A stretch of 64,000 nt of DNA from Candidatus Poribacteria bacterium (GTDB lineage: Bacteria; Poribacteria; WGA-4E; PCPOR2b), in NCBI GenBank assembly GCA_965208675.1, contig OZ242351.1, forward strand, positions 2,456,491 through 2,520,490, read 5' to 3'. This document shows, piece after piece, positions 455 through 25,392 of the stretch (position 1 is the first letter of the stretch; each line of letters begins with the position of its first letter). Below the pieces are notes generated by a model. The model searched no databases, was not told the origin of the DNA, and was given only the letters and a program-made list of their open reading frames with translations. The position numbers and the translations under genes are program-made.

Positions 455-730
455 TCAAAACGGCCACCAGCGACGTTTTTCAAACTCCTTGACGGCGTCC
501 AATGCTTCAGGCGTGCCAATGTCCTTTAATGCGCGGGCGGCGCGTAAACGTGCCCAAGCCGTTCGAGAACCCAACCGTTGAATATAATAGGCAACCACGG
601 CGTCCAATGCTTCAGGCGTGCCGATGTCCTGTAATGCTGCAGTGGCATGATGACGTTCCTTATAAGCCTCTGGATCGTTCAAAATTTGAATCAAAACGGG
701 AACCAGAAACTCATCATCCGCTAATGCCAC
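455..730 (-). CDS. HEAT (PBS-lyase type) repeat protein
   Basis: 91-aa ORF with two repeat units ending ALQDIGTPEALDAV and ALKDIGTPEALDAV, preceded by LIQILNDPE-type helices. Confidence 0.6.
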   Translation of the reverse strand: MALADDEFLVPVLIQILNDPEAYKERHHATAALQDIGTPEALDAVVAYYIQRLGSRTAWARLRAARALKDIGTPEALDAVKEFEKRRWWPF

Positions 731-736
731 TAACGG

Positions 737-1342
737 TCACACTGCCCGTCTTTCAATTAGCTCCTCTATCACGATGCCGCGCATAGAAGGGTCGATTTTG
801 ACAATTGCCAACCCTGCGCCGTTCCTAACATACCGCAGATACCGCTTATCATCACTACGAAAAAGCTCTGTCAAGGCAGGTATGGCTTCCGCGGCGTCAG
901 GCCCCATTTTTCCCAATGACATTAACGCCGTCCAGTGAACGCTAGGCCATTCATCATTGAGTACTGATGTTCGTCCCGTATTTTCATCCCGCAATGTTTC
1001 TATCAGTGCGGGGATGGCTGAGACGGCAGGCGGTTCTATACTACCTAACACGTCTGCGGCAGCTTCTCGAACATAGGCATATTCATCAAACAAAGCGTGC
1101 GTCAAGGCGGGAATGACTTTATCGCGCTCTTGTTGAGCCTTGCTCGCCAACAGGTAGACTGCCTTTTCTCGTAAGTTATAAAATCGATTGTTTTTGAGTT
1201 GAGTTATCAGGAAATCTACATCCTTATCCGACCAATCCGGATTGTGACACCCCATCGGGTAACACCCCATCACAGTTAAACAGCTGATGAGAAGCATGAA
1301 CACATGGATGGAAAAAAAACGACGCCCATTCCTTTTGTCCAT
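737..1342 (-). CDS. HEAT-repeat protein with signal peptide, possibly a lipoprotein
   Basis: 201-aa ORF. Hydrophobic N-terminus FFSIHVFMLLISCLTVMGC. Repeated AIPALIETLRDEN / AIPALTELFRSDD HEAT-like units. Confidence 0.65.
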   Translation of the reverse strand: MDKRNGRRFFSIHVFMLLISCLTVMGCYPMGCHNPDWSDKDVDFLITQLKNNRFYNLREKAVYLLASKAQQERDKVIPALTHALFDEYAYVREAAADVLGSIEPPAVSAIPALIETLRDENTGRTSVLNDEWPSVHWTALMSLGKMGPDAAEAIPALTELFRSDDKRYLRYVRNGAGLAIVKIDPSMRGIVIEELIERRAV

Positions 1343-1374
1343 TGGTATCCTCTAACTCGCCGTAGGGTATTTCC

Positions 1375-1977
1375 TCACTGCTCCTTTGGTTGCCGTTCAA
1401 TCACAATGGGGTTATACTGTGATTCAGGCAGATAATCCTCAATAGCGTATTCTAACCGCACTGGAGTCCCGGACGAATCGGGACGGAGAATAAATCGCAT
1501 AGCTAGTGATGGATGGCCGTCAACACCGTAAAGATATACCTTGTACACCCGATTCACTTCCAACGGTTTGGCGGGCACCAATTCTTTGTAACCGGGCGGC
1601 ACCGCCCCATACTGTATACAGTGCAATGGATGGCTCGCCCGTTTCTCTGTCGGTCGATACTGCATTCGCCAGAAACACTTGTCATGACCCCGCCAAGGGG
1701 TTTTGACGCCCAAATCCTGTTGATTGTGTTTCTCCGATTCCCAAAAACGAAATACAGCGATTTCACCAATATACAGGGGATCCGCAATTTGATGCAGATG
1801 TTCGGATTTTTCAGATTTATCATGTAAACAGAACGTGGGGCGGGAAACCTCCGAGTAGGGCGGCACCGTTGTCCAACTTAGTAATCCGTTGCCGCAACCA
1901 CTCAAGATTGCCGCTCCAGTTATTAAGCAGAAAATCAAAACAAGCCGTCTCATAATTCTCCTTTTAATCACGATCAC
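1375..1977 (-). CDS. hypothetical lipoprotein, paralog of 1964..2506
   Basis: 200-aa ORF with lipobox-like AILSGC. Shares YGAVPPGYKE and PVRLEYA blocks with the neighbouring ORF. Confidence 0.6.
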   Translation of the reverse strand: MIVIKRRIMRRLVLIFCLITGAAILSGCGNGLLSWTTVPPYSEVSRPTFCLHDKSEKSEHLHQIADPLYIGEIAVFRFWESEKHNQQDLGVKTPWRGHDKCFWRMQYRPTEKRASHPLHCIQYGAVPPGYKELVPAKPLEVNRVYKVYLYGVDGHPSLAMRFILRPDSSGTPVRLEYAIEDYLPESQYNPIVIERQPKEQ

Positions 1978-2506
1978 GATGGAGGAAGTGCCTTGAAAAG
2001 ACGTATTCCAATTTCACGGGTGTCCCGTTCTCGTCCGACCGGATAACAAAACGAATCGGACGTGATGGATAAGTATAGCTCATCCCCGAAACGTCAGCGA
2101 CATAGATTTTTTCAGGTATCAAGGGCAAAGCGGGATGTTCCTCCTTGTACCCCGGCGGTACTGTTCCGTACTCGATGGTGGTTACAGGACTCGCCGTGTG
2201 TGCCGAGGAATCAGGCTTATATTCAATAAACCAATCTATCACATCCTTGCTTCGTCCGGGTGGAAGTTCTGAATACCCCGTATCGAGATAAACTTTAATG
2301 CGTCGGATATGGTCTAGATCGTCGGTGTCACTTGCTGTATCTTTATAGTCACTGTTGTGTTTGTAAACGCAAAATACTGGGGTTGTCACTGGTGTTTCCA
2401 GTGCTGGATGCAAGCCATACACCCCGCTAGAACCCCCGTATGACACACAGCTACTCTGAAAACAACAACCAATACTGACAGCAAGCACCACAATGAAGCG
2501 TATCAT
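1964..2506 (-). CDS. hypothetical lipoprotein, paralog of 1375..1977
   Basis: 180-aa ORF with signal peptide MIRFIVVLAVSIGCC. Shares YGTVPPGYKEE and PVKLEYV blocks with the neighbour. 14-nt overlap with the downstream paralog. Confidence 0.6.
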   Translation of the reverse strand: MIRFIVVLAVSIGCCFQSSCVSYGGSSGVYGLHPALETPVTTPVFCVYKHNSDYKDTASDTDDLDHIRRIKVYLDTGYSELPPGRSKDVIDWFIEYKPDSSAHTASPVTTIEYGTVPPGYKEEHPALPLIPEKIYVADVSGMSYTYPSRPIRFVIRSDENGTPVKLEYVFSRHFLHRDRD

Positions 2507-2653: not shown

Positions 2654-3436
2654 CTAATCACTAGCAGGTGCGGCTCTAGTTGTAAAGGAAAAATCAACAA
2701 CTCCGAGATTCCCCATATCATCGGTTATTGCTATGCTGACACTATATTTTGTTGCATAATTTAATTCCTGCATGTAGCCAAACTCCCAAGTAGCGATACC
2801 AGTACAGGCTCGCATACTTTCATTGTCAATACGCAGAGCAGCAACTTTTATCGGGGGACTGATCTCAAAAGATGTTGAGCCTCGCATGGCCTGTATGGGG
2901 CGGTCAAATACAACTCGCACCCCGCGTGTGGTTTTTGGGTCAACATCTTGCCCAATTGGGTGATATTCAAGGACTATCGGCGCAGCGATGTCAAATGGTG
3001 CTATCCGAAACCATCCTACATAAGGATGGGCCTGGACATCGCCATTGACGTTCTGGAAATCACGAATGACAATCGAACTTATATTGTCGTCCGGTGCAAC
3101 ATACGCAAATGTTCGAAAGCATTGATTCCATGTAATGGTATCGGTCGCTTCGGTCTCTTGAAGTTGATAAGGTGTGACGCCAAACACAATACGACCTGAA
3201 TTTGGTATGATTGGCTGGCTGAAACTGATACGAAATTCTTGCGTAGCGGTGTTCAGTTCAGCGGGTGCAGAGTGCTGAGCGCCGGGTTTTGGGCTGAATG
3301 CTATCACCCGCGGGGGATTCATCGGTTGTTCTGGTCGTATGCTATCATCCGTTGGCTCTGATGAGCAGCCAATGACCAAAAACCACCCTAAAACAAGACA
3401 AACTATAAGAAACGGCAAAATGATTTGTAGTTTCAT
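2654..3436 (-). CDS. lipoprotein with two Ig-like (SbsA/Big-like) beta-sandwich domains; candidate immunity/accessory protein of the upstream RHS toxin
   Basis: The ORF runs to 3454, but the ATG at 3436 follows GGTGGA (RBS-like) and yields MKLQIILPFLIVCLVLGWFLVIGC (lipobox). The C-terminal ...VDFSFTTR ending resembles the other Ig-like lipoproteins in the locus. Confidence 0.6.
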   Translation of the reverse strand: MKLQIILPFLIVCLVLGWFLVIGCSSEPTDDSIRPEQPMNPPRVIAFSPKPGAQHSAPAELNTATQEFRISFSQPIIPNSGRIVFGVTPYQLQETEATDTITWNQCFRTFAYVAPDDNISSIVIRDFQNVNGDVQAHPYVGWFRIAPFDIAAPIVLEYHPIGQDVDPKTTRGVRVVFDRPIQAMRGSTSFEISPPIKVAALRIDNESMRACTGIATWEFGYMQELNYATKYSVSIAITDDMGNLGVVDFSFTTRAAPASD

Positions 3437-3465
3437 ATTTTCCACCATACGCAATTACGTTTAGG

Positions 3466-6400
3466 TTACTGAATTTTTATACTGCCCCACGTAACTAGAT
3501 TATACTGAGTAATCAGAGGTTGAAACCAAGATAAAGCTGAGTGTGCGTCTTGAACACTTATAACTTGCCTGCGATACTCCTCAAACCTCATATCCATACG
3601 TAAATCAACCACCGTTCTTCCCCAAGAAAGTTGCCAGGCGATATGGAAGTAGGACTGGGTTGCCGAAGCATGTTGTTCCATGCCTAAGTTCAGGGTCGTT
3701 AATTCATGCCTATTGAACGCATAAAACGATTTGTCCGGAGGCGGATCTCGCCAAGGTGAACGTCCGCGAAAACGATTGTACTTCCGCTGCCACGCATGAG
3801 TTACTTCGTGAATCAAAATACCCAATGCGTTTGTGACATCGGCGGTAAGTGAACCGTTGCTACCAAAAGCATCGGATGTTGTCGATCCTGCATTGAGACC
3901 GGCATAGAAGTCCGGATTAACTGCGATTCTGTGCTTACCGTCTCGAAATTCTAGATACTTTCCTCTTACGGGCTTTCCTCGACTGTCAAAAAGAGGCTTT
4001 ATAGTTATATCCAACTCATCCGCAGATATGGATCCGTTAAATACCATATCCACAGCATACGACTCCAATGCACTTAGGGCTCTCAACCCCGTCGGGTCGA
4101 TAAACGCCAACGGATTGTTATTCGCATAGGCATACCAGTTGATGCCATCTCCGGCGGGATCTCGCTGATTAAACCTGCCAGTGTAGGGGTCATAGCCGAC
4201 GGGACGCCCGGGGAAATGGTATAATTTTACATCACTTTCATACTCTTTACCCGTGAACTTGCGCGCGTTGTCGGTCGTGCCGACTTCAGAGCGCACTGCG
4301 CCGAACACGTCGTACTCATACCGCACAAGCACATTCTTGTTATCGTCCGTTAAGACGATGTTGCTGCCCAAAGCGTTGGGGTGGTGGTATTCATAGCGTC
4401 CCATCTGATTGTTTGACAACTTAGTTATCTCAGCGTCGCTTAGCGCAGCGTCGTAGATGGATACATCGTCGAGATAACCGTTGAGGTGGTGGTTAGTCGC
4501 ATCATAAAATCCCATCCACAACGCCTTGGTCGTTGCCGCCAACGACGCTGTTGATGCCGTTGAAGCCGTGTCTTTGGTGCCGCCGATAAAGACGCGGAGT
4601 TCGCTGCCGTCATACCGAGCCGCCACATGCTTCCATGTGTTTAAGGGGATGGTCGTTGCACTGGTGACGGTCTTGGTTGTCCCGCTGAACAGCACCTCGA
4701 ACTGAACCGCGCCGGTGCTAGTTATCCAGAGCCGATACCCGTTAGAGGCGTTTGCCTTTTTGACCAGATTCCCGCTCGCCACAGTGGACCGCTTCACCCA
4801 ACAACTGATGGTTAGTGTATTGCCAACAAGGTCTAAGGCATCACTGTCTGCGACTTTTACGACATCGTTAGTGCCGTCAAAAAGGAGGCTACCCCCGTTT
4901 TCAGTGCTCCAAGCAGGCTTTTTGTTTTCAGTGCCGCCGCCCAGCGTGCCGTTCTGGCTGCCGTCAACGTCATGCGCCACAGTGCCGGTGCCTTCATCAA
5001 AGTGCCAATGCGCAACGGCATTGTGTTTCCGGCGATATACAACGCCGTTGCCGCCATAGAGATAGCTGGCCGTGATGTTCTTGCTTGAATCCAATTCTAG
5101 CACCGGCATCAAGCCGTCGTAAAGAAAATACCTTGTGCCCTGGCTGTCCGAGACTTTCACCCGTTTGCCCCCGCCGTCGTAGGCGTATGTGAGCGTCTGT
5201 GTCACCGTGTTGTTTCGGGTCTTCTGAATCTGTTTCAACTGCGAACCGAATCCGTAGGTAAATGCGTCCGAATCCGTGCCTTCGCTCCGTTGCGTCAGCT
5301 TCCCTTCAGCATCGTAGGTGTAATTCATCGTCGAGAAGTCGGTATCTTCAGGCACTAGTGAACGGTAGGTCAATTGGTTGCTGTTGGTGGCAACCGTGTA
5401 GGTCGTCGTGCCATCAACGCTGCTCACCTGTGTGAGCCGGTTGCCGGACTTGTCGTAGGTGTAGCTGACGGTCTCGTTCCCGTAGTTGGCGCTAGTCAAG
5501 CGTGAGATATTATCGTAACCGAATGTGAACGTCTTGCTTGACCCGCCGGCGCCGGTATCGTCTCTCACCAACTGCGTCACATTCGATTTGTCGTCGTAGG
5601 TGTAGGTTAAGGAACTGAGCGTAGTGGAAGCGTCCTTCTTGTACGTCAGCGTGCTTAAGCGGTTGACGTTATCAAGCGTTCGATGCGCGGTGATGCCGTT
5701 TGGAACCGTGACTTTCTTCAACGCCCCGATGTCGAAGTAACCGTAGCTTTCGGTCTTGTTAGCAAGCACGTCCTTAACCGTCAGCAGCCGGTTGGCTTCG
5801 TCGTAGGTATACTGGACATCGTATAACTTTGTGGTTGTGCTGCCGGTAGTTGGATTGACGTACATGCGCGTCCGCATCGAAGAATCGTCGTATTCGTAGA
5901 CGGTCTTATAACCCAAGAGCGAATCGGTGCGGTTCTTGATGCGGTTGAGTTGGTCGTGCGTGAAGGTATAGGTGTAAGTATTCGCGCCGTCGTTGGTCTT
6001 TTGGGTAAGCACGTTGTCGCCCAAGTCGTAGGTGTAGTCTACGACCTCGCCCGTCTTGTAGCTGACTTTCGAGAGGCGGTTGAGGTTGTCGTAGGTATTG
6101 CTGACGGCGGGGCTGGTTTCAGTGCCGGTTTGGCTCGTCCACGCCTTCGTAACCTGATTCAGGGTATTGTAGCGCGTCTCCACCCAATCGCCGTCGGGCA
6201 AGGTCTGCTTAGTCACTCTGCCGAGTTCATCGACGGTATAGTTGGTTATCAAGCCGCGGGGGTCTTTGGTCTGGGAAATGTCGCCGGCAATGTTGTAGAC
6301 CGTTTCGGCTGTAGCGTATGGAGTCGTCCAGTTATCCTTGAAGCTGTGGGCTTTGACGGCGCGGTTCATGGCGTCGTATTCGGTTTTGGTCTGGGCTATT

Positions 6401-8397
6401 AGCGTGCCGGTCTGCCAGTTGTTCTTGCGGACTTGGGTCTGGGTGACGTTGCCGTTCTTGTCGTAGGTTGGGATGGTGTGCATGTTATCGGCAACGCGCC
6501 GGGTGTATTTTAGCTTTCTATCTTTCCAGTAGGCGTATTCGGTGCGTCTGCCCTGCGCGTCAATGTCTGCCGTTTTCAACCCGCGGTTGACATCCCACTC
6601 GGATTTGGTCTTGATGATATGGTCTGCACCGTTTACTGTGACGGTGGTCTTGACCTCGATTGGATACGTGTGATGGGTCGCATCATAGACAGTCTCCACA
6701 ACCTTCTCTTGCGTTGTCCCCGGCATGAAGGTGGTCTTGGTTCGGTTGCCGTAGGAGTCGTAGGTGTGCTTGGTGATGATGTCGTGGTCGACGGCGTGGG
6801 GCTGTGTGCCGGTATTGGCTTTGCTGCGCTGCTCGGTGAGATTTCCCTTCGAGTCGTAGGTGAACGTCGTCTTATGCCCCATCGGGTCTATCTGCCAGAG
6901 GGGGCGGTTAAACTTTGTCTCGTAGTCCGCCGTCCATTTGCGGAAAACAGAGCCATTCGTGGTATCTATCTGTTCCCAATTCGTGGCGTTGCCCATCTGA
7001 CTGTTGTGGGTGGCATTTGTGCCCGCATAGTAGATTTTGTACAGAAAATCCAGGCTGGAAGAAGCACCGCCATGTTGCGATCTAATAAGATTTCTATTGG
7101 AGTATACCCAACGCGAATCGGCATAAGACGCCCGCGGCATTTTCACACCTTTTACATATATCCAGCGTCTGCTTCCCAAACCGTGGTGTTTAGCAATGAC
7201 GGCGCTTGAGGTGACAGTATAGCCGGCGTAATGCCGGTCGCTTCCGCTTTCTATGGCATGACGGCGGTTGTTATGTCTACTAGTAATAAAATAGTACCGG
7301 CGATATACTATGTCCCCGTGAATGCTGCCTGCCTTGGGAAGATTTCTGACGTACACAGTTGACACCTGGAGGTGCTTGAGTCCATAGTTATATAAATAGC
7401 TAATTGTGGTTCGAGAGCCCAACGGAGAGACGATTGCTGAGAGATAGCGATAGTTATTCTTGTAGTAGGTTTCGTATTCGTATTGAGTCTTTAACTCACT
7501 GCCGCGGGGGTCGCCGGTGCCAAGCGGATGTGTAACGGATTTCAGGCAAGTTCGCACAGGTCTCGCGTATCTGCCATAGCAACCGTGGCTGTATTTTACC
7601 GTCCGATAGACGGTTGTTAATGCCGTTGGCGTGCCCAAACCGAACTCAATTTTACTGATATGCCGCGTCAAATTCGTGTTATCTATCCGGACATCATAGT
7701 AGAATTTCAGTATCCGTCCGAGCGAATCTTCCACCGCGACGAGCCGGGGATATTTAGGAGCGCTAGTGCCTTGATAGCGTGTCTCAGGTGCGTTCTCATA
7801 ATGGAGTGTAAGTTTGTTGCCGTTCGGGTCTAAAATCTCTTTCAACACATACCGCGCGTAACGATCGGTGACAAGTTGCTCAAACGTGTATTTGATACCG
7901 TGCTTGGTTGTGTAGATAAATGCGCCAGCCTGTGTGCCTGACTGCACTAACTTCAAAGTGGCGCGCACCCCGGCTTTAGGGGTTAATTTTATGTTAGGTT
8001 TTCTGCCAGTTCCCGTAAAGGTATGTTTCGCGCCGCTGCCGGTGGTAATTGATACGATCTGCAGTTTGTAAGCTCTACTCCCGTAATGCCACGCCCCACC
8101 AGTGTATATATCCCATTGATAGGAATGAGACCAATCGTGTCCGATATAACTGGCGCCTTGATACCAATTACGAGAGATGCCGTTGTAAATGTAATTCCGC
8201 GTAAATTCAAGCCCCAATCCGCGCCCCGGCACAGTCAAATCGGTCTCCGAAAAAACGAGCTGAAAAGAAATCATATTGACCATGCTGTCCATCTCTTGCG
8301 GGTAATTCGGCACGGGACTTCCGAACTGGCTGGGGGCGGTGTTAGAAAAAGCGAATAGCATCAAAGTTATTAACAGATAGAAACAGATTTGCTTCAT
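3466..8397 (-). CDS. RHS/YD-repeat polymorphic toxin (RHS1) with Sec-type signal peptide, LamG/ConA-like insert and C-terminal HExxH zincin-like toxin domain
   Basis: 1643-aa ORF. N-terminus MKQICFYLLITLMLFAFS. Many YD-repeat signatures (YTYD, YEYD, G..T.Y.YD). LamG-like block ending LNGYLDDVSIYDAALSDAEI. RHS core end NWYAYANNNPLAFIDPTGL at about 4085-4099. Last roughly 205 aa contain HEVTHAWQ. Confidence 0.9.
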   Translation of the reverse strand: MKQICFYLLITLMLFAFSNTAPSQFGSPVPNYPQEMDSMVNMISFQLVFSETDLTVPGRGLGLEFTRNYIYNGISRNWYQGASYIGHDWSHSYQWDIYTGGAWHYGSRAYKLQIVSITTGSGAKHTFTGTGRKPNIKLTPKAGVRATLKLVQSGTQAGAFIYTTKHGIKYTFEQLVTDRYARYVLKEILDPNGNKLTLHYENAPETRYQGTSAPKYPRLVAVEDSLGRILKFYYDVRIDNTNLTRHISKIEFGLGTPTALTTVYRTVKYSHGCYGRYARPVRTCLKSVTHPLGTGDPRGSELKTQYEYETYYKNNYRYLSAIVSPLGSRTTISYLYNYGLKHLQVSTVYVRNLPKAGSIHGDIVYRRYYFITSRHNNRRHAIESGSDRHYAGYTVTSSAVIAKHHGLGSRRWIYVKGVKMPRASYADSRWVYSNRNLIRSQHGGASSSLDFLYKIYYAGTNATHNSQMGNATNWEQIDTTNGSVFRKWTADYETKFNRPLWQIDPMGHKTTFTYDSKGNLTEQRSKANTGTQPHAVDHDIITKHTYDSYGNRTKTTFMPGTTQEKVVETVYDATHHTYPIEVKTTVTVNGADHIIKTKSEWDVNRGLKTADIDAQGRRTEYAYWKDRKLKYTRRVADNMHTIPTYDKNGNVTQTQVRKNNWQTGTLIAQTKTEYDAMNRAVKAHSFKDNWTTPYATAETVYNIAGDISQTKDPRGLITNYTVDELGRVTKQTLPDGDWVETRYNTLNQVTKAWTSQTGTETSPAVSNTYDNLNRLSKVSYKTGEVVDYTYDLGDNVLTQKTNDGANTYTYTFTHDQLNRIKNRTDSLLGYKTVYEYDDSSMRTRMYVNPTTGSTTTKLYDVQYTYDEANRLLTVKDVLANKTESYGYFDIGALKKVTVPNGITAHRTLDNVNRLSTLTYKKDASTTLSSLTYTYDDKSNVTQLVRDDTGAGGSSKTFTFGYDNISRLTSANYGNETVSYTYDKSGNRLTQVSSVDGTTTYTVATNSNQLTYRSLVPEDTDFSTMNYTYDAEGKLTQRSEGTDSDAFTYGFGSQLKQIQKTRNNTVTQTLTYAYDGGGKRVKVSDSQGTRYFLYDGLMPVLELDSSKNITASYLYGGNGVVYRRKHNAVAHWHFDEGTGTVAHDVDGSQNGTLGGGTENKKPAWSTENGGSLLFDGTNDVVKVADSDALDLVGNTLTISCWVKRSTVASGNLVKKANASNGYRLWITSTGAVQFEVLFSGTTKTVTSATTIPLNTWKHVAARYDGSELRVFIGGTKDTASTASTASLAATTKALWMGFYDATNHHLNGYLDDVSIYDAALSDAEITKLSNNQMGRYEYHHPNALGSNIVLTDDNKNVLVRYEYDVFGAVRSEVGTTDNARKFTGKEYESDVKLYHFPGRPVGYDPYTGRFNQRDPAGDGINWYAYANNNPLAFIDPTGLRALSALESYAVDMVFNGSISADELDITIKPLFDSRGKPVRGKYLEFRDGKHRIAVNPDFYAGLNAGSTTSDAFGSNGSLTADVTNALGILIHEVTHAWQRKYNRFRGRSPWRDPPPDKSFYAFNRHELTTLNLGMEQHASATQSYFHIAWQLSWGRTVVDLRMDMRFEEYRRQVISVQDAHSALSWFQPLITQYNLVTWGSIKIQ
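4421..8210 (-). repeat. copy A of an exact 3,790-bp direct repeat (RHS core)
   Basis: Constant offset of 9,499 bp to copy B. Edges checked base by base. All shadow ORFs are duplicated at the same offset. Confidence 0.85.
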
Positions 8398-8415: not shown

Positions 8416-9261
8416 TTATTGACTTGTTTTGCCGTATAATTGATGAATCCATGTGGATTTGTCGAGCGCTTGTTTGGCTTCGGCGTCTCTTTTGTGTTCC
8501 TTTAGGCAGAGAGCGCGTAGACCTAGGAAGCCCGACATTTCTTCTGCCGGTGATAGCGATTTCAAAAAGCGGTTGGCTTGTTCTTCTGCTTCGGTGAATG
8601 GGTGCGGCCACTTGCGGTAATACGAATCCGGATAAGGATTCCACCCTCGCCCTGTCGCCTCAATGTTGAAACGTCCATTTTCCGACTCCCACCGCGCAAA
8701 GAGATGAGCTTTAGCGCGTACCAACTTTAACGGGTAGCCTAAGCGTCTACCGATGGCAACAACCAAGACAGGCATCGAGGCGCAAGTTCCCATGGGACGC
8801 TGAGATAACAGCCCATGAAGGAACAAATCTTTTGAATCGGCAAAAAACCGCGTCGATTTAAGGTCGTCCAATGCGCCAGTCTCAATCAGTTCGGAATTGT
8901 ATTTGACCCCCATATCCTGCGCTAAGACCGTCACCATCATCTCTATCTGGTAATATGCCAGTGAGTTGTTGTAATAGCCCTTATCTCGATGAAATAGATG
9001 TTGGTAGCGTTCGGTTTCCGACTCAATCCGCCGCACCCATTCATCGAGTTTCGCTAAAGCGGCCGGAATATCCAATGCTTCAGCGCCGGGCAGCCCCTGC
9101 GCACAAACCATGTTGATGTAGGCAATATCAAACTCTGGCAGTGCCGTTTCCAGTTCTTTTTCTGTTATAGCAAGTAACTTTTCAACCGATAGCGGCTCGG
9201 CAAATTGCGCTGAGCATAGCGCAGGCATCAAATGGAGAATTAGCACAGAGATTTTTGGCAT
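8416..9261 (-). CDS. secreted transglutaminase-like (Transglut_core2/SirB1-like) protein
   Basis: 281-aa ORF. Signal peptide MPKISVLILHLMPALCSAQ. GTCASMPVLVVAIGRRLGYPL...AHLFARWE resembles the Cys/His core of transglutaminase-like folds. Ends 18 nt upstream of the RHS1 start. Confidence 0.5.
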   Translation of the reverse strand: MPKISVLILHLMPALCSAQFAEPLSVEKLLAITEKELETALPEFDIAYINMVCAQGLPGAEALDIPAALAKLDEWVRRIESETERYQHLFHRDKGYYNNSLAYYQIEMMVTVLAQDMGVKYNSELIETGALDDLKSTRFFADSKDLFLHGLLSQRPMGTCASMPVLVVAIGRRLGYPLKLVRAKAHLFARWESENGRFNIEATGRGWNPYPDSYYRKWPHPFTEAEEQANRFLKSLSPAEEMSGFLGLRALCLKEHKRDAEAKQALDKSTWIHQLYGKTSQ

Positions 9262-9321: not shown

Positions 9322-10089
9322 TTACTCGCTCGCCGTTTGGAAGCGAATCACAATCGGGCCGTCCTCAAGCCCTCTGCCTCTATCTCCACCGATGTTATAA
9401 AGGTCTAACAGATGGATTTCATATTCATGACCCGGCAAAAGCCAATCGTCTTCGCTTGCAGGCAACAGGGTAGCAATGTCTTGATCGCTTGCCCAATCAA
9501 TTATCCAATTCAGCCTCATTTGACCGCTGTAAACTTCAATCGGGGATCGTTGGATGTCAATAAAAGTGTTAAAAGTAATCCGTATCCCTTCTCGGTTCAA
9601 CTGATCGGCATTAGCATCAGTTTGCTTATGACTTATATTTGCTTCCTGAATCGCTGGTAAGGGCCTCGAAACATGGTAAGCGCCCAGGGTCACATCAAGC
9701 GTATCTCCATGCTGGACACCGGGTTCGTCTTCGTAGACTATCCTCAAGGTCACATCCTTTTCAGGATTAAAGCCGTCTTGACTATCCCACACCTCTAGTC
9801 GGTTGGTTTCCAGCAGCCAAATCGTCGCCGCCGGTTTTTGATTTGGTCTAGCGTCTACCTCATTGATGCTAACCTGTCGGACAGGCTTGTCAAAGACAAG
9901 CTCTATTGTATCCGAATGCGAAATTATCTCACGTCCATTTAGTGGAAGGATGCTGACAACCAACTCTTGAAGGCCTCGATAGTAATAAGCACTAGCTTCT
10001 ATGAGCCGCGCTGGTTGTATTTCCTCATCCGCTGAGCAGCCAATGAGCAAACACAGCACGGCACACAGCATCACACTGTTCAACAGCAT
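9322..10089 (-). CDS. lipoprotein with tandem Ig-like domains, paralog of 10102..10899
   Basis: 255-aa ORF with lipobox LLIGCSADEE. Shared blocks IELVFDKPV, DVTLGAY, IEVYSGQ, EDDWLLPG, IVIRFQTA. Confidence 0.65.
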   Translation of the reverse strand: MLLNSVMLCAVLCLLIGCSADEEIQPARLIEASAYYYRGLQELVVSILPLNGREIISHSDTIELVFDKPVRQVSINEVDARPNQKPAATIWLLETNRLEVWDSQDGFNPEKDVTLRIVYEDEPGVQHGDTLDVTLGAYHVSRPLPAIQEANISHKQTDANADQLNREGIRITFNTFIDIQRSPIEVYSGQMRLNWIIDWASDQDIATLLPASEDDWLLPGHEYEIHLLDLYNIGGDRGRGLEDGPIVIRFQTASE

Positions 10090-10101
10090 GTCATAATTCC
10101 T

Positions 10102-15900: not shown

Positions 15901-17899
15901 GCGTGCCGGTCTGCCAGTTGTTCTTGCGGACTTGGGTCTGGGTGACGTTGCCGTTCTTGTCGTAGGTTGGGATGGTGTGCATGTTATCGGCAACGCGCCG
16001 GGTGTATTTTAGCTTTCTATCTTTCCAGTAGGCGTATTCGGTGCGTCTGCCCTGCGCGTCAATGTCTGCCGTTTTCAACCCGCGGTTGACATCCCACTCG
16101 GATTTGGTCTTGATGATATGGTCTGCACCGTTTACTGTGACGGTGGTCTTGACCTCGATTGGATACGTGTGATGGGTCGCATCATAGACAGTCTCCACAA
16201 CCTTCTCTTGCGTTGTCCCCGGCATGAAGGTGGTCTTGGTTCGGTTGCCGTAGGAGTCGTAGGTGTGCTTGGTGATGATGTCGTGGTCGACGGCGTGGGG
16301 CTGTGTGCCGGTATTGGCTTTGCTGCGCTGCTCGGTGAGATTTCCCTTCGAGTCGTAGGTGAACGTCGTCTTATGCCCCATCGGGTCTATCTGCCAGAGG
16401 GGGCGGTTAAACTTTGTCTCGTAGTCCGCCGTCCATTTGCGGAAAACAGAGCCATTCGTGGTATCTATCTGTTCCCAATTCGTGGCGTTGCCCATCTGAC
16501 TGTTGTGGGTGGCATTTGTGCCCGCATAGTAGATTTTGTACAGAAAATCCAGGCTGGAAGAAGCACCGCCATGTTGCGATCTAATAAGATTTCTATTGGA
16601 GTATACCCAACGCGAATCGGCATAAGACGCCCGCGGCATTTTCACACCTTTTACATATATCCAGCGTCTGCTTCCCAAACCGTGGTGTTTAGCAATGACG
16701 GCGCTTGAGGTGACAGTATAGCCGGCGTAATGCCGGTCGCTTCCGCTTTCTATGGCATGACGGCGGTTGTTATGTCTACTAGTAATAAAATAGTACCGGC
16801 GATATACTATGTCCCCGTGAATGCTGCCTGCCTTGGGAAGATTTCTGACGTACACAGTTGACACCTGGAGGTGCTTGAGTCCATAGTTATATAAATAGCT
16901 AATTGTGGTTCGAGAGCCCAACGGAGAGACGATTGCTGAGAGATAGCGATAGTTATTCTTGTAGTAGGTTTCGTATTCGTATTGAGTCTTTAACTCACTG
17001 CCGCGGGGGTCGCCGGTGCCAAGCGGATGTGTAACGGATTTCAGGCAAGTTCGCACAGGTCTCGCGTATCTGCCATAGCAACCGTGGCTGTATTTTACCG
17101 TCCGATAGACGGTTGTTAATGCCGTTGGCGTGCCCAAACCGAACTCAATTTTACTGATATGCCGCGTCAAATTCGTGTTATCTATCCGGACATCATAGTA
17201 GAATTTCAGTATCCGTCCGAGCGAATCTTCCACCGCGACGAGCCGGGGATATTTAGGAGCGCTAGTGCCTTGATAGCGTGTCTCAGGTGCGTTCTCATAA
17301 TGGAGTGTAAGTTTGTTGCCGTTCGGGTCTAAAATCTCTTTCAACACATACCGCGCGTAACGATCGGTGACAAGTTGCTCAAACGTGTATTTGATACCGT
17401 GCTTGGTTGTGTAGATAAATGCGCCAGCCTGTGTGCCTGACTGCACTAACTTCAAAGTGGCGCGCACCCCGGCTTTAGGGGTTAATTTTATGTTAGGTTT
17501 TCTGCCAGTTCCCGTAAAGGTATGTTTCGCGCCGCTGCCGGTGGTAATTGATACGATCTGCAGTTTGTAAGCTCTACTCCCGTAATGCCACGCCCCACCA
17601 GTGTATATATCCCATTGATAGGAATGAGACCAATCGTGTCCGATATAACTGGCGCCTTGATACCAATTACGAGAGATGCCGTTGTAAATGTAATTCCGCG
17701 TAAATTCAATCCCTAATCCGCGCCCCGGAACAACCAAATCGGTCTCCGAGTGAATGCTCCCAAAGGTAATCATATTGACCATGCCGTCCATCTCTTGCGG
17801 GTGACGCGGCACCGGACTCCCGAACTGGCTTACGGCGGCGCTAGAGAAAGCGAATACCATCAGACTTATTAACATACAAAAACAGAAATTTCTTTTCAT
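12944..17899 (-). CDS. RHS/YD-repeat polymorphic toxin (RHS2) with Sec-type signal peptide, LamG-like insert and a different C-terminal HExxH domain
   Basis: 1651-aa ORF. N-terminus MKRNFCFCMLISLMVFAFS. Residues from about 64 to 1327 (the exact DNA repeat) are identical to RHS1, with only scattered substitutions on to the core end. Core end NWYAYAYNNPLGFVDPTGM at about 13586-13600. Unrelated roughly 213-aa tip with HEFSHVH. Confidence 0.9.
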   Translation of the reverse strand: MKRNFCFCMLISLMVFAFSSAAVSQFGSPVPRHPQEMDGMVNMITFGSIHSETDLVVPGRGLGIEFTRNYIYNGISRNWYQGASYIGHDWSHSYQWDIYTGGAWHYGSRAYKLQIVSITTGSGAKHTFTGTGRKPNIKLTPKAGVRATLKLVQSGTQAGAFIYTTKHGIKYTFEQLVTDRYARYVLKEILDPNGNKLTLHYENAPETRYQGTSAPKYPRLVAVEDSLGRILKFYYDVRIDNTNLTRHISKIEFGLGTPTALTTVYRTVKYSHGCYGRYARPVRTCLKSVTHPLGTGDPRGSELKTQYEYETYYKNNYRYLSAIVSPLGSRTTISYLYNYGLKHLQVSTVYVRNLPKAGSIHGDIVYRRYYFITSRHNNRRHAIESGSDRHYAGYTVTSSAVIAKHHGLGSRRWIYVKGVKMPRASYADSRWVYSNRNLIRSQHGGASSSLDFLYKIYYAGTNATHNSQMGNATNWEQIDTTNGSVFRKWTADYETKFNRPLWQIDPMGHKTTFTYDSKGNLTEQRSKANTGTQPHAVDHDIITKHTYDSYGNRTKTTFMPGTTQEKVVETVYDATHHTYPIEVKTTVTVNGADHIIKTKSEWDVNRGLKTADIDAQGRRTEYAYWKDRKLKYTRRVADNMHTIPTYDKNGNVTQTQVRKNNWQTGTLIAQTKTEYDAMNRAVKAHSFKDNWTTPYATAETVYNIAGDISQTKDPRGLITNYTVDELGRVTKQTLPDGDWVETRYNTLNQVTKAWTSQTGTETSPAVSNTYDNLNRLSKVSYKTGEVVDYTYDLGDNVLTQKTNDGANTYTYTFTHDQLNRIKNRTDSLLGYKTVYEYDDSSMRTRMYVNPTTGSTTTKLYDVQYTYDEANRLLTVKDVLANKTESYGYFDIGALKKVTVPNGITAHRTLDNVNRLSTLTYKKDASTTLSSLTYTYDDKSNVTQLVRDDTGAGGSSKTFTFGYDNISRLTSANYGNETVSYTYDKSGNRLTQVSSVDGTTTYTVATNSNQLTYRSLVPEDTDFSTMNYTYDAEGKLTQRSEGTDSDAFTYGFGSQLKQIQKTRNNTVTQTLTYAYDGGGKRVKVSDSQGTRYFLYDGLMPVLELDSSKNITASYLYGGNGVVYRRKHNAVAHWHFDEGTGTVAHDVDGSQNGTLGGGTENKKPAWSTENGGSLLFDGTNDVVKVADSDALDLVGNTLTISCWVKRSTVASGNLVKKANASNGYRLWITSTGAVQFEVLFSGTTKTVTSATTIPLNTWKHVAARYDGSELRVFIGGTKDTASTASTASLAATTKALWMGFYDATNHHLNGYLDDVSIYDAALSDAEITKLSNNQMGRYEYHHTNALGSNIVLTDDNKNVLVRYEYDVFGAVRSEVGTSDNPRKFTGKEYESDVKLYYFAARYYDPYTGTFNQRDPAGQGVNWYAYAYNNPLGFVDPTGMYIVLPGGTEIRSVPKTDADGNYIRPAGLTDDGGLVWDAIFTGGINGTGIAGSGAAGGILTDIIESDVQVNIKFDKNLASDANTDPTDFHNSGITVNVKNTPNPQFVGQLIRLTTDLVHEFSHVHNFIMYPSVFLHGSSSYDKDFYLYVMELMAFDLGARFAIENMDWVVGKSKLGRWYVGYSRFTEGQLNTYGSADYTEQLRNLAATASNYFPR
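13920..17709 (-). repeat. copy B of an exact 3,790-bp direct repeat (RHS core)
   Basis: See copy A. Mismatches appear at 13879, 13913 and 13919 on one side and from 17710 on the other. Confidence 0.85.
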
Positions 17900-19126: not shown

Positions 19127-19502
19127 GTTTTGACCTCCTAAGAGTTTGTTTGATAAAGTCATTTGATACGTTTGCGTATCAAAAATGTGGAAGCTATTCA
19201 ACATCGCTAAGAACTTGTTTGAAAAGTCCTTCCTTTCCCGACGAAAAGGGACTGTAGGCATCGCGTAACCCTGCTGCCGTCTTCTGCCGCGGGAAGGATT
19301 AAAAGATGCATCAATCTCTAGAGCCAGCCGGATTAGAGAAAGACAATCTGCCTCCCCTGTACTATGGCAAAAACCGTGCCAATGGTCGGTTTAAGGAGGA
19401 GTTCAACTCTGTAGAGACGGATAAATTCAGTGGTAGCCTAGGTTCGATGGATATGCGAAGGAGTCAGAAGGACGGTAGCGTGACAGGGTGCGGGTTGAAA
19501 AA

Positions 19503-19606
19503 GTCCCATATTGGGACTGACAAGATTGGCAGAAATAGCGGATAAGCCTGTAATGACGCGGGATGGGGGCGTTTTCCCAATATGGGAATTTGTCCCATAT
19601 TGGGAC
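19503..19606. promoter_or_regulatory. three copies of a 15-bp palindromic motif (candidate operator set)
   Basis: GTCCCATATTGGGAC at 19503-19517 and 19592-19606. TTCCCAATATGGGAA at 19574-19588. Confidence 0.35.
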
Positions 19607-20088
19607 GAAAGAAGAAGGTTTAAGGGCGGATTAGTTCATTCAATTGATAATTTTTTTTGTAGGACAGGATTTTTTTCAAGATTTAAATAATTTTTCGGTA
19701 AATTCCGAGTGATGTCCGGTGCGGTTGGGGAACCGAATCTACCGAGTTGGACGGAATTCGCTGTAGTTGGGAAATCGCACCTACCGCCGTGAAAGGAGGT
19801 TATACGACTTCAATTTCCGATACAGTGTTGATTAACCAATCTTCAACGCGTACACCCTAATGGACGCGCATCACTGTCTACACATTGGGGGTAAGTCAGG
19901 GCACGAGGAGGTGGGGACTTTTTTTTGAAACTGTCCGACATGGTTAGGAGCGAGGTTGCATTGCCCATTAAGCAACGCAATCAAACAGTGCAATAGTATG
20001 ACCGGATTCATCGGGGGCATCGGAACGGAATACGTCTATATTCGTACCTCGATACCGAAATTGTAAAGCGGCGAGCATAGACAATTCT

Positions 20089-21165: not shown

Positions 21166-21169
21166 ATTG

Positions 21170-22804: not shown

Positions 22805-22854
22805 CTTTTAGAAAAAGCGTTGGGTTTCGAAATCCTGTTCAACCCAACTTACAA

Positions 22855-22990
22855 TCTGTCGCCCCGCTGGGGCTTAGGTGGGTGGGGTTGCGGTATTTCT
22901 ATACACCTTCCGCCCCGCTGGGGCTTTTGGCTTGATTGTTGGGTTTCGCAGAAAACTATCGCCCTCGTTATTCACTCGGTTGATCGCTCG
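22855..22990. repeat. intergenic repeat cluster: two GCCCCGCTGGGGC hairpins plus one ACTATCGCCCTC..TCGGTTGATC unit
   Basis: Hairpins at 22861-22873 and 22912-22924. Unit at 22955-22986. Lies between the PilM/N-like start and the secretin stop. Confidence 0.55.
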
Positions 22991-23004
22991 ACCCAATCTA
23001 CAGT

Positions 23005-25392
23005 TTATTCGGTTGGTCGATCATTGCTTTTAATCACTGTCGGTTGAATGATTACAATTAACTCCGTCTGTTCGACGGTTGTTTCTTTTGAGGAGAATAG
23101 GAGACCTCCAAGCAGCGGAATGCGGCCCAGGATTGGGACTCGGCTGACTTTCTGAATCTCCTTCTCCTGGAGCAACCCTCCAATCACAACGACGCCCTGA
23201 TCGGGGACGTTGATGGTGGTCTGTATCAGGCGCTGATCTAACGACGATTCTTCGCGTGACAGTTGGTCGGCATTTCGGATAGCGAGTTGTATTTGCATCG
23301 TGACCTCGCCGGAGGCGCCGATGGCGGGCGTCAATTCTAACAGAATTCCTGTTTCAATCGTGAAGTAGCTGCGGTAACTCGACGGCGGGTATCCGCCGAA
23401 CGCCGTTACCTGCGACGAAGATTCACCGACAACCCCGCCTATCGACGTGTAAATCGGGTTGTTGGTCTCGAACAGATGCTTCCCGCCAATATCGATCGAT
23501 GCCTTCTCGCCGTTCACGACAGCAAGCGAGGGATTAGCCAGCAGCTTACCGCGATTTTTTTCGACCAACGCGGATAGTTTCGCGCTGAACGCCGGCGGCA
23601 CACTCACCAACGAGTCGAAACTCACCACGCTTCTATCGTTTATCTGAACCGCAGCTCGGTTTTCGGCGGCTTCGACGGCCAGTCCCAATTCGTCACGGTT
23701 GCCTTTCGTCAACTCCAGCAGGTAGAGTTGAATCATCGCCTGCGGCTGAGGCACATCAACGGTTTGCAGATACTCACGAAATGCGCTAATTTTCGCACCG
23801 GAGCCCACGACTAGCAAGGCGCTCCGCTCCGGCAGTGGGCTGATGTTCACATTGAGCGGGGCAGGCAGCAGTTCCATTGCCTTCGGCACATCCAGATAGT
23901 TTAAGGCAATCAGTTCCTCCTCCACAAATGGCGCATTCATTTCGGATCCGATAATCAGCATCGGCTTTTCGTCAGGCGTCGTTTTGACCCATTTGTATGC
24001 GTAGCCCGAACCCAAAAACAGTGCCGACAGAACCGATTCTAAAGTGGCGTCTGTTTGGCGCAAGGTAACGGTCTCGGTTGATGAAATGGGCTGGGGGTCT
24101 GGGGTTGCACGTTGGGACGCAGTTGGCGATGTGGTTGACGGCTCCGGCGCTGTTCCATCTAAGAACACTATATCAATTCCGGTTTCAATGGAGAGCTGAC
24201 GTACCGCATCGAAGCGCGGCGCGTTTAATAGGTCAACGCTCAGCCGTCCCGTTCCGCTGTCCGAATTGATGGCAATCGCGCCGCTGCCCTGATATCCACG
24301 AATAGCATCGTCTGTGGTGTCCAGTTCACCAAGGAATTGTGCTGCCTCTTGAATCAACTTCCGTGATCCGACGATAGTGACCGTGTTGTGCGTCTGGGAG
24401 ACAACGACATTTTGCTTGGGGATATGAATCGGGAGTAGGTTGAGAACCGTGTTTGCCTCAAGGTGGCGTAGCCATATGGTCTTGCGTTCGATTAACGGGT
24501 TCAGTTCATCCGCTTTTATCTCAGGTCTGCCAAAGAAGTGGAGGTCATCGGTTTGACGATAGGTATAGCCGGTCATTTTCGCCAAATCCATTAATATCTC
24601 CGTAACGGTTCTGTTATCGAGCCGCAACGTGATTTTTTGGCGCTCAATATCCCCCACTATCGACAGGTTGATCTTTGCACGCTCCGCCAACTCCGTCAGC
24701 AGTAGAGTCAAACTCGCCTCGTGGGCTGTTACTGAGATGCGACCGTCGGATATCAATAGCGTTAAACCAGCTTGCTGCAAAGGTGCCGGAGGCTCAACTC
24801 GGTAGATGTCATCGGAAACGTGCAGGGTGAAGTCGGCGAATAGTACGGGCAGGGCCTTGTCAAGCGGTTGGTCTCGGAGATGTGACGTGACTTGACCCGT
24901 CAGGTTGGAGTCGCTAGTTATATTCATGCCGGCTTGAGCTAAAGCACGAACCACCTGATTCACTTCAACCCCGTTCGCATCAACAGCGAGTTTCCCTTCG
25001 GAGATGTTGAGCGAAAGGCGTTGGCTCTCAGGGAGGCTTTGTCCAATGAAATAGATTTCGCCGCGCTTTTCAAGCGTGAACCCGTTCGGTTCTAACAGTG
25101 CTAACAGCCCGGTTTCTATCGACACGGCGTTTAGGTTGGTCGTGACAGTGGTGGTCGCGGGGATAATATCAAGCCCCGCTACGCTGATGCTTTTCTGCGC
25201 GGCAAGATTGCCTAACACGTCGCGCAAGCTGGCGTCCCGGCAACTTAGGCTGAAAACGGAGTCATGGTTTTGGGCGTGGCTTGAGCAAGGAAGGATGTTA
25301 TCATGCGCAAGAGACAAGAAAAAGAGCAGCAATACGGTTCGAGGCACTGGGGTAATCTTTTCCATTCGGAATACGCATTGCAGGAACTTCAA
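23005..25392 (-). CDS. outer-membrane secretin (PilQ/GspD family) with multiple N-terminal STN/secretin-N-like repeats
   Basis: 795-aa ORF. Repeated short domains (ASLRDVLGNLAAQKSISV, ASLTLLLTELAERAKINL, RTVTEILMDLAKMTGYTY, ATLESVLSALFLGSGYAY). C-terminal secretin signature VSRVPILGRIPLLGGLLFSSKETTVEQTELIVIIQPTVI. Confidence 0.85.
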   Translation of the reverse strand: MKFLQCVFRMEKITPVPRTVLLLFFLSLAHDNILPCSSHAQNHDSVFSLSCRDASLRDVLGNLAAQKSISVAGLDIIPATTTVTTNLNAVSIETGLLALLEPNGFTLEKRGEIYFIGQSLPESQRLSLNISEGKLAVDANGVEVNQVVRALAQAGMNITSDSNLTGQVTSHLRDQPLDKALPVLFADFTLHVSDDIYRVEPPAPLQQAGLTLLISDGRISVTAHEASLTLLLTELAERAKINLSIVGDIERQKITLRLDNRTVTEILMDLAKMTGYTYRQTDDLHFFGRPEIKADELNPLIERKTIWLRHLEANTVLNLLPIHIPKQNVVVSQTHNTVTIVGSRKLIQEAAQFLGELDTTDDAIRGYQGSGAIAINSDSGTGRLSVDLLNAPRFDAVRQLSIETGIDIVFLDGTAPEPSTTSPTASQRATPDPQPISSTETVTLRQTDATLESVLSALFLGSGYAYKWVKTTPDEKPMLIIGSEMNAPFVEEELIALNYLDVPKAMELLPAPLNVNISPLPERSALLVVGSGAKISAFREYLQTVDVPQPQAMIQLYLLELTKGNRDELGLAVEAAENRAAVQINDRSVVSFDSLVSVPPAFSAKLSALVEKNRGKLLANPSLAVVNGEKASIDIGGKHLFETNNPIYTSIGGVVGESSSQVTAFGGYPPSSYRSYFTIETGILLELTPAIGASGEVTMQIQLAIRNADQLSREESSLDQRLIQTTINVPDQGVVVIGGLLQEKEIQKVSRVPILGRIPLLGGLLFSSKETTVEQTELIVIIQPTVIKSNDRPTE

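Follow-up and report, generated by a model that had tools for sequence, protein, structure and literature searches.

A locus for polymorphic toxins of the RHS family was studied in a 64,000-nucleotide stretch of DNA from a Candidatus Poribacteria bacterium (contig OZ242351.1, positions 2,456,491 to 2,520,490 of the forward strand, GenBank assembly GCA_965208675.1), referred to below as the window. The locus occupies positions 455-25392 and consists of two sets of genes. The first is a module of three genes, for a secretin and for two predicted fusion proteins, here called PilMN and PilOP, that resemble alignment proteins of type IV pili (T4P) as well as of systems for type II secretion (T2SS). 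The second, on the other side of a 960-bp gap, begins with the genes for a secreted lectin-like protein and the toxin RHS2 and continues through accessory genes to a second toxin gene, RHS1, and the genes that follow it (Table 1). A listing of open reading frames (ORFs) combined with Pfam and NCBIfam scans gave 16 ORFs of at least 90 aa, all on the minus strand in one unbroken codirectional string, and a small extra ORF with a signal peptide sits below position 455. A preliminary description of the window had given the same order and strand, and its count of 17 genes becomes 16 at this length. It had also reported no markers of a type VI secretion system (T6SS), Tc toxin, two-partner secretion or type VII secretion system (T7SS), and no pilin, ATPase or prepilin peptidase. 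The ORF scans agree, as none of hcp, vgrG, PAAR, tssB/C, TcA, TpsB, T7SS, pilin, PilB/T/C and prepilin peptidase genes was found among the ORFs of at least 120 aa in the 64-kb window.

The association of the two gene sets is conserved. All ten loci that have an intact secretin/PilMN/PilOP module and enough flanking sequence carry the lectin-like and RHS genes beside the module. These loci, namely the window and those labelled L001, L003, L004, L005, L007, L008, L009, L010 and L015, represent eight lineages at <80% secretin identity, and the window secretin is 54-77% identical to those of the other nine. Three arrangements were found. In arrangement A (window, L001, L003, L004, L007 and L008), the genes follow each other in the order secretin, PilMN, PilOP, lectin-like and RHS. 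In arrangement B (L009, L010 and L015/L016), a lectin-like, RHS and immunity gene set is convergent with the secretin, PilMN and PilOP genes, and in arrangement C (L005), RHS is followed by SUKH immunity genes, orphan tips and then the secretin, PilMN and PilOP genes. The genes of the outer flanks are unrelated between lineages. The closest packing is that of L003, where overlaps run from the secretin gene through PilMN and PilOP into the lectin-like gene and 120 bp separate the latter from RHS. Thus, the recurrence of secretin-rhs linkage in relatives, proposed as a check in the preliminary description, was confirmed.

Table 1. Features of the codirectional gene string in the window, in the order of transcription.
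Feature	Position	Strand	Matches and remarks
Secretin	23005-25392	-	PF00263 E=4e-33, STN, Secretin_N
PilM-PilN fusion (PilMN), predicted, 544 aa	21170-22804	-	PilM profile and fold matches; weak Pfam PilN/PilM_2
PilO-PilP/GspC-HR fusion (PilOP), predicted, 295 aa	20089-20976	-	PF04350 23.9 bits (cutoff 22)
Non-coding gap, 960 bp	19127-20088	.	Separates secretin module from lectin-like and RHS genes
Secreted lectin-like protein, 378 aa	17990-19126	-	Predicted fold
RHS2	12944-17899	-	DUF6531, RHS repeats, Laminin_G_3, TIGR03696
Exported HEAT-repeat protein	11699-12817	-	HEAT_2 E=5e-14; signal peptide; Ig-like C-terminus according to the preliminary description
Orphan RHS tip	10902-11702	-	C-terminal half of TIGR03696 only (positions 37-76)
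Ig-like lipoprotein 1	10102-10899	-	Weak Big_5; lipobox LIGC
Ig-like lipoprotein 2, paralogue of 1	9322-10089	-	Weak Big_5; lipobox LIGC
Transglutaminase-like exported protein (Transglut_core2)	8416-9261	-	PF13369 E=2.7e-6; signal peptide
RHS1	3466-8397	-	DUF6531, RHS repeats, Laminin_G_3, TIGR03696
Big_5 lipoprotein	2654-3454	-	PF13205 E=9e-10; lipobox VIGC
lipoB, envelope protein	1964-2506	-	Paralogue of lipoA; no Pfam match
lipoA, envelope protein	1375-1977	-	Paralogue of lipoB; no Pfam match
HEAT-repeat protein with lipobox	737-1342	-	HEAT_2 (1e-18 and 1e-9 for the 737-1342/455-730 pair)
HEAT-repeat protein closing the string	455-730	-	HEAT_2

The first gene product of the module belongs to the secretin superfamily, with a PF00263 score of 114.7 bits (cutoff 27.5) and additional matches to Secretin_N and STN. 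It includes a signal peptide, several STN/N0-like repeats, Secretin_N and a C-terminal secretin domain, and the position of its start is uncertain by ~9 codons. The N-terminal 500 residues make an unusually long periplasmic part with several STN/N0-like repeats of ~100 residues each; these repeats were recognised by reading of the sequence and from a second tblastn segment against L010, a sign of internal similarity. The protein scores under the NCBIfam equivalog cutoffs of GspD, PilQ, SctC and MshL. Its 153.8 bits against the GspD equivalog TIGR02517 (cutoff 351) do not qualify it as GspD, and comparison with the PDB placed it at roughly equal distance from the solved GspD and PilQ structures.

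The 544-aa protein encoded by the second gene has no confident Pfam match, PilN (E=0.04) and PilM_2 both being weak. When a profile of its family was compared with the PDB, the PilM proteins of Pseudomonas aeruginosa (best, E=9e-7), Myxococcus xanthus and Thermus thermophilus were found. In an AlphaFold model (pLDDT 73), a helix of ~80 residues lies between an actin-like domain and an alpha-beta-beta repeat domain, and a Foldseek search with this model returned PilM first (E=1e-11), followed by FtsA and the cytoplasmic domain of EpsL/GspL (~5e-9). Given these profile matches, the domains of the model and the Foldseek ranking, the protein is predicted to be a PilM-PilN fusion, in which the actin-like domain would be cytoplasmic, the helix transmembrane/coiled-coil and the last domain periplasmic and ferredoxin-like. 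Several PilMN relatives have a recorded match to PF11104, and a distant homologue carries PF05137. Residues 6-10 are invariant among relatives, which supports the start that gives 544 aa.

The 295-aa product of the third gene is predicted to be a bitopic inner-membrane protein in which PilO is joined to a beta domain of the PilP/GspC homology-region (HR) type. A profile of the family matched M. xanthus PilO (3jc8) with E=1.3e-4, and a profile of the C-terminus matched the GspC HR structures 2lnv and 7oio with E=2e-3; the NCBIfam GspC_delta match was weak (E=4e-3). In T2SS and T4P, the HR domain is the part that binds the N0 domain of the secretin. The HR-like part is encoded by a separate gene in the distant homologue L017. 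The module would thus have the five functional parts of the type IVa pilus (T4aP) PilMNOPQ subcomplex (PilM, PilN, PilO, a PilP-type beta domain and the secretin), including the PilM domain and the PilN/PilO ferredoxin-like domains after a transmembrane helix. It differs from T4aP in that these parts are encoded by three genes in the order Q, MN, OP rather than by five in the order pilM-N-O-P-Q, so that the secretin gene is first and not last, in that the module is always found beside RHS, and in that no pilin, PilB, PilC or PilD gene lies in any flank examined.

The family to which the module belongs is small. A scan of a genome collection with the secretin found four loci, all in metagenome-assembled genomes of Candidatus Poribacteria and three of them on complete chromosomes. 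An exhaustive search of 1.84 billion representative proteins with the PilMN profile gave 19 relatives at E<=1e-30. L017/L018 form the tier after these and have an ordinary PilMN-PilO-PilP-like operon without a secretin or RHS. The contigs of L019 and L020, which carry intermediate PilMN relatives, were too short for RHS linkage to be scored. At least 12 of the 19 PilMN contigs (>=10 kb) are equal in size to a contig that carries the lectin-like protein, a proxy for co-residence and not a direct test, which suggests that the two proteins are encoded together there. A word-indexed protein search with the secretin returned 29 close family members only, being of a type unable to reveal paralogous secretins, and a scan of JGI metagenomes with the PilMN alignment gave no relatives. 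These comparisons mark the module as a narrow, derived offshoot of the T4P/T2SS alignment machinery. A lectin-like protein of L015 is labelled 'Gammaproteobacteria bacterium' by NCBI; transfer across phyla was not accepted on this ground, mis-binning being possible.

In both RHS proteins, Laminin_G_3 is an insertion and TIGR03696 corresponds to the core. The repeats matched PF05593 (E=5e-21 and 3e-21 in the two proteins) and TIGR01643 in both cases, and the core scored 63.9 and 73.0 bits (cutoff 32.5) with the motifs FIDPTGL and FVDPTGM, the RHS2 core ending in DPTGM. RHS1 and RHS2 are 98.1% identical over 4305 bp of DNA and diverge exactly after DPTG(L/M), and their last 618 and 645 nt are mutually unrelated. 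A shared core with such an abrupt divergence has the hallmark of tip replacement. YD/RHS shell repeats, a core ending in DPxG(L/M), a variable tip with an adjacent immunity-like gene and an orphan tip are all present, as is characteristic of RHS polymorphic toxins.

At the N-termini of RHS1 and RHS2, the n-region is positively charged and the core that follows is hydrophobic (Kyte-Doolittle mean ~2.7 over 12 residues). Positions -3 and -1 hold small residues, and the mature N-terminus that comes next, QFG(D/S)PVP, is conserved in seven RHS homologues. The n-, h- and c-regions, the -3/-1 residues and the conserved QFG(D/S)PVP argue for cleavable Sec signal peptides, and the Sec-type assignment made in the preliminary description is therefore upheld. 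The signal peptide is followed by DUF6531, and there is no PAAR/VgrG-binding N-terminus and no vgrG, hcp or EagR neighbour in the 64-kb window. Pfam likewise gave no match to a TcA partner in the window or to a TcB SpvB/beta-propeller N-terminus in the RHS proteins.

The tips of RHS1 (206 aa) and RHS2 (215 aa) include the motifs HEVTHAWQ (HEVTH) and HEFSH, respectively, and the orphan tip has HELTH. A profile of the HExxH tips, including those of RHS1 and the orphan (A5), found a single significant family in the PDB, the VgrG2b effector domain 6H56 (E=2e-13). The subgroup profile A6, to which the orphan tip belongs and from which tips of the L013 type were left out, also had 6H56 as its sole match (E=1.1e-6). 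The RHS1 tip as a single query gave no PDB match, and the RHS2 tip gave neither a family nor a PDB match. Pfam gave only sub-threshold matches of the tips to zincins (M91, M76, M78, BSP, DUF6782 and eCIS_core). Among these, Peptidase_M91 matched the RHS1 tip with E=1.3e-3, below cutoff, and PF13699 (eCIS_core, formerly DUF4157) reached at best 15.8 bits (cutoff 22), on the L013 tip, the window tips being unmatched. Hence, it is by the family profile that the RHS1 and orphan tips are assigned to the VgrG2b C-terminal zinc-metallopeptidase family, as the RHS1 tip alone finds nothing and the Pfam matches are sub-threshold. The C-terminal domain of VgrG2b, a zinc metallopeptidase, exerts its toxicity in the periplasm of bacteria, and immunity proteins that are periplasmic or lipoproteins neutralise it (PMC6899460). 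The orphan tip ORF starts with a signal-peptide-like segment of its own, MTMNTVFRFTLAILLLTLIAAPALEA. The orphan tip might thus be more than a silent cassette, being made and exported as a short toxin in its own right.

The lectin-like gene starts with the ATG at 19126, behind AGGAGG, and in its product a signal peptide and a Gly/Thr-rich linker precede a beta jelly-roll and a helical bundle. No sequence match to the protein was found in Pfam, NCBIfam or the PDB. In the AlphaFold2 model the core has pLDDT >90, and Foldseek related it to CBM16/CBM4/CBM22, a hyaluronan-binding module and receptor modules of phage tailspikes (E=1e-6 to 1e-4). Wherever the start of RHS can be seen together with its upstream flank, a homologue lies immediately upstream of RHS (L003, L007-L010 and L013-L016) or upstream of it across a gap of 1.0-1.2 kb (L001 and L004). 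In L005, the RHS start is outside the examined stretch and a lectin-like homologue, P0107, is found on an equally long contig. The lectin-like protein is thus a constant gene partner of these RHS proteins. For RHS2 and all related RHS genes the lectin-like gene is the upstream neighbour; directly upstream of RHS1, the gene for the transglutaminase-like protein (8416-9261) stands in its place.

The gap between the two gene sets (19127-20088) has no Rfam match and no terminator signal above chance. It contains an exact sigma-54 -24/-12 consensus, TGGCACGGTTTTTGC, at 19367-19381 on the minus strand, ~255 bp upstream of the lectin-like gene, and 125-225 bp further upstream of this site three palindromic copies of TCCCAATATGGGA at 19504-19605, which look like sites of an enhancer-binding protein. 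The sigma-54 site and the palindromes resemble a dedicated promoter, but no relative has them upstream of its lectin-like gene or its secretin gene, and they are given here as a side observation only. A 104-aa fragment of a sigma-54 activator (AAA_lid_14 and HTH_8) is encoded at 6039-6353 of L008, 1.3 kb upstream of the secretin gene, and may relate to the site in the window.

The accessory proteins have the lipoboxes LIGC, VIGC, LSGC and VMGC, and the genes behind the tips specify lipoboxes or signal peptides, in keeping with immunity proteins located in the envelope. A toxin family that acts in the periplasm fits these lipoboxes and signal peptides. The periplasmic immunity suggested in the preliminary description is therefore supported both by these signals and by the homology of the RHS1 and orphan tips to the periplasm-acting VgrG2b (PMC6899460). 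Across the loci, the genes that follow a tip co-vary with the tip type. The exported HEAT-repeat protein at 11699-12817, directly after the RHS2 stop, is a candidate for immunity to the RHS2 tip; HEAT-repeat proteins also follow RHS in L008, and those at 455-1342 resemble the L008 proteins. From their position, the Ig-like lipoproteins at 9322-10899, homologues of which are present in L013, are candidates for immunity to the orphan tip. RHS1 is followed directly by the Big_5 lipoprotein, the candidate for its cognate immunity, and homologues of this lipoprotein follow related tips in L003 and L013.

Members of the lipoA/lipoB family lie directly behind an RHS or orphan tip of the LIHELVHVWQ type in L009, L010, L013, L014 and L015. 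The window segment with lipoB and lipoA (1375-2641) shares 88.8% DNA identity with L013 16089-17348. In L013 the RHS gene directly precedes this pair, whereas in the window the pair sits behind a different tip and a Big_5 lipoprotein gene. As these are inserted ahead of them, lipoA and lipoB of the window are probably displaced immunity genes, left orphan by insertion of a tip and its immunity gene. SUKH immunity genes and PT-TG orphan tips, both typical of polymorphic toxin systems (PMC3482391), are present in L005.

The reading favoured here, which has about an even chance of being correct, is that the window contains an RHS polymorphic-toxin locus that depends on Sec and is coupled in function to a dedicated module, derived from T4P/T2SS, that spans the envelope. 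In the model, the RHS and lectin-like proteins would be exported by Sec, and the RHS shell would fold in the periplasm around its tip. The shell would then pass through the secretin or be mounted on it, PilMN and PilOP aligning the secretin with the inner membrane, and the lectin-like partner might aid recognition of either the secretin or a glycan of the target cell. The tip would attack the envelope of neighbouring bacteria, and the periplasmic lipoproteins would shield the producer and its kin. A stronger form of this proposal takes the secretin, PilM-PilN and PilO-HR proteins as a self-sufficient minimal export machine for Sec-delivered RHS shells and their lectin-like partner, working without a pseudopilus or a GspE/PilB-type ATPase. 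This is unlikely; if true, the module would represent a distinct secretin-based secretion system and not a borrowed part of a pilus or T2SS.

Several points weigh against the coupling of the toxins to a dedicated module. No gene for an ATPase, platform protein, pilin or prepilin peptidase was found in the window or in any examined flank. The pilMNOPQ operons normally lie apart from the pilin and ATPase genes, and the module may be the pilus subcomplex of the cell. All of the linked loci come from one phylum and their RHS genes are orthologous, hence part of the conservation of the linkage is inheritance. The gap of 960 bp that separates the two gene sets of the window may hold a promoter of its own. 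One form of the model, which is built on sequence and comparison, presumes that a folded RHS shell of ~180 kDa would pass through the secretin pore. Finally, lectin-like and RHS genes also occur without the module. There is none within 10 kb of those in L014, and in L013 (OZ242326, ~2.36 Mb), which is the orthologue of the window locus with flanks that are 94.4% identical over 9.4 kb, the lectin-like, RHS, lipoB and lipoA genes are kept and the secretin gene is reduced to a remnant of 237 bp.

The remnant (L013 9375-9611) lies between DUF4432 and the lectin-like gene and is 76% identical in DNA to window 24685-24921, indicating that the module was deleted at L013 while the lectin-like, RHS and immunity genes were retained. 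The module is thus dispensable at a given locus. OZ242326 has a second, intact cluster at L003. The persistence of lectin-like and RHS loci without a local module (L013 and L014), together with the intact L003 of OZ242326, fits a single module that probably acts in trans for several RHS loci. A secretin pseudogene, corresponding to approximately the first 600 codons and frameshifted into three ORFs, is present at L002 9935-11768 (OZ244587), and the PilMN, PilOP, lectin-like and RHS genes are all missing within 10 kb of it. A gene for a phage-type integrase lies beside the lectin-like gene in L010 (10798-11460), L015 (5483-6451) and L016 (8615-9583). This suggests a possible mobile island that carries the whole lectin-RHS-immunity-PilOP-PilMN-secretin block.

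Some of the same observations would be explained if the module were an ordinary T4P/T2SS alignment subcomplex and the RHS genes only inherited neighbours or co-residents of an island, the toxins leaving the cell by vesicles, by lysis or through another outer-membrane factor. This explanation is possible, though not probable. The components are of the usual T4aP kind, with PilM ahead in both the fold and the profile comparison and with matches to PilO and the HR domain too; a relative is named 'pilus assembly protein PilM' by NCBI, and the nearest outgroup is a plain PilMN-PilO-PilP operon. Every linked locus is from Poribacteria with the same RHS family, and RHS loci persist after deletion of the module (L013) or without it (L014). 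However, an inherited neighbourhood does not readily account for an adjacency that outlived at least two rearrangements, an inversion of the RHS block and a transposition, while the outer flanks changed in every lineage, and no intact module with enough flank is without RHS. In L003, moreover, it is the lectin-like gene, otherwise the companion of RHS, that overlaps the end of the PilOP gene, and the family is very narrow for a housekeeping pilus component.

A different role for the pair was also considered, in which the module and RHS cooperate not in bacterial killing or release but in that the RHS and lectin-like proteins, displayed on the secretin, form a surface adhesin or a host-directed effector with sponge cells or particles as its target. 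The organism is a sponge symbiont, the lectin-like partner has a glycan-binding fold shared with receptor-binding modules of phages, and RHS has the LamG insertion. The weak matches to Peptidase_M91, the family of the host-targeting effector NleD, point the same way, and VgrG2b is also reported to act on eukaryotic cells (PMC6899460). Such a role is quite unlikely, given the classic layout of a polymorphic toxin, with tips exactly after DPxG, orphan tips, small exported genes that co-vary with the tip and SUKH in L005, which indicates self-protection against an antibacterial toxin. Chance juxtaposition, left standing in the preliminary description as an alternative and favoured in the window by the 960-bp gap and a possible separate promoter, is hardly credible because the intact modules keep the lectin-like and RHS genes in ten loci, eight lineages and three arrangements with unrelated outer flanks.

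The proposed coupling of secretin module and RHS toxins was compared with known systems. GspL of T2SS is itself a fusion of PilM-like and PilN-like parts, and T2SS moves folded periplasmic proteins through its secretin, the mechanism proposed here; the HR domain of GspC may also have its counterpart in the C-terminus of PilOP. Unlike the GspC-D-L-M set of T2SS, the module in the window has a secretin that scores far below the GspD cutoff, no Pfam match to GspL or GspM, a weaker fold match to GspL than to PilM, and no adjacent gspE-K. No GspE, GspF or GspG-K was found in the 64-kb window or the examined flanks.

The closest precedent is Bcn-A of Xanthomonas perforans, an RHS-family bacteriocin whose activity is lost in a mutant of xpsD, the secretin gene of the Xps T2SS (PMC7259588). 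Like the toxins of the window, Bcn-A is an RHS/YD toxin of a diderm with no T6SS involvement, a downstream immunity gene and accessory ORFs, and its activity is found in the supernatant. Bcn-A uses a general T2SS that is encoded elsewhere with an ATPase and pseudopilins, whereas here the secretin, PilMN and PilOP genes are linked to RHS, the alignment protein is PilM-like and not GspL-like, no ATPase or pilin genes are nearby, and the system is known from genes alone. RHS toxins with signal peptides are a recognised class, termed 'T2SS' by Zhang et al. 2012 (PMC3482391). The preliminary description had proposed that the secretin delivers the RHS proteins. The linkage behind this proposal is real and conserved, and export of RHS through the secretin is what we infer. 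Its characterisation as an undescribed RHS delivery route was overstated, in view of this class and of the xpsD dependence of Bcn-A, which gives secretin-dependent release of RHS a precedent. The novel element is a compact secretin module, of PilM type and with three genes, whose linkage to RHS and a lectin-like partner has been kept through rearrangements, and no report of such a secretin-RHS-lectin linkage was found in the literature. The literature on secretin, pilus and secretion systems of Poribacteria gave nothing usable on T4P, T2SS or T6SS content.

Other systems share parts of the layout. The Sec-dependent RHS/WapA toxins, such as Bacillus subtilis WapA and M. xanthus Rhs4/Rhs5, the latter being T6SS-independent (PMC10433427), likewise have a signal peptide in place of PAAR, a variable tip after the core, immunity genes and orphan tips and act independently of T6SS, while in the window a specific candidate machine and a constant lectin-like partner gene are genetically linked to the toxin. 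The P. aeruginosa VgrG2b C-terminal domain and PA0261 (6H56; PMC6899460) are similar in the HExxHxWQ zinc-metallopeptidase family, in a site of action that would be periplasmic here too, and in immunity proteins, here candidates, that are periplasmic or lipoproteins. VgrG2b rides on a T6SS spike, whereas the tip described here ends a Sec-exported RHS shell. With T6SS Rhs effectors and TcB/TcC, the window proteins share the RHS shell, the TIGR03696 core with a DPxG autoproteolysis motif and a variable tip, which would be encapsulated; they differ in having a Sec signal peptide, with no PAAR, VgrG, Hcp, EagR, TcA or SpvB in the window. For MafB of Neisseria, a secretin has been proposed for the outer-membrane step, with PilQ excluded (PMC4287609).

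How RHS and other polymorphic toxins that depend on Sec and not on T6SS cross the outer membrane of diderms is an acknowledged gap (PMC4287609), and for Bcn-A there is only a loss-of-activity phenotype (PMC7259588). The linked module is a candidate for the outer-membrane route of RHS toxins with signal peptides. As three genes beside their presumed RHS cargo, it makes a small, defined set open to reconstitution, and it suggests that alignment parts of pili and T2SS may be re-usable for toxin delivery. Abundant sponge symbionts would also carry antibacterial weapons that act in the periplasm and have diversifying tips, which bears on competition in the sponge microbiome.

Within the string, signals for sigma-70 promoters and terminators were not above chance, no Rfam family was found in window 1-27000, and no tRNA genes flank the clusters. 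The remaining window ORFs of at least 120 aa include the housekeeping genes TsaD, Sua5, ThiF, LpxI/A/C-FabZ, YceG, RuvX and ClpB, as well as a PSCyt2/PSD1/DUF1501 group, PD40 propellers and BlaI/BlaR1. LpxC-FabZ is a fusion gene at 36473-37783 (minus strand). A PSCyt2/PSD1 gene followed by a DUF1501 gene lies at 53236-56213 (plus strand), a grouping typical of Planctomycetes-like genomes. Between ~44000 and 53000 there is an island of low GC content (38-44%, compared with ~50%) that includes restriction-modification genes and was probably acquired horizontally. It encodes an SDH/ClpP-like protease (45139-46206), an N6/N4 DNA methylase (48404-49180), an AlwI-type restriction endonuclease (49185-51008) and a RadC-JAB/D12-methylase fusion (51011-52831).

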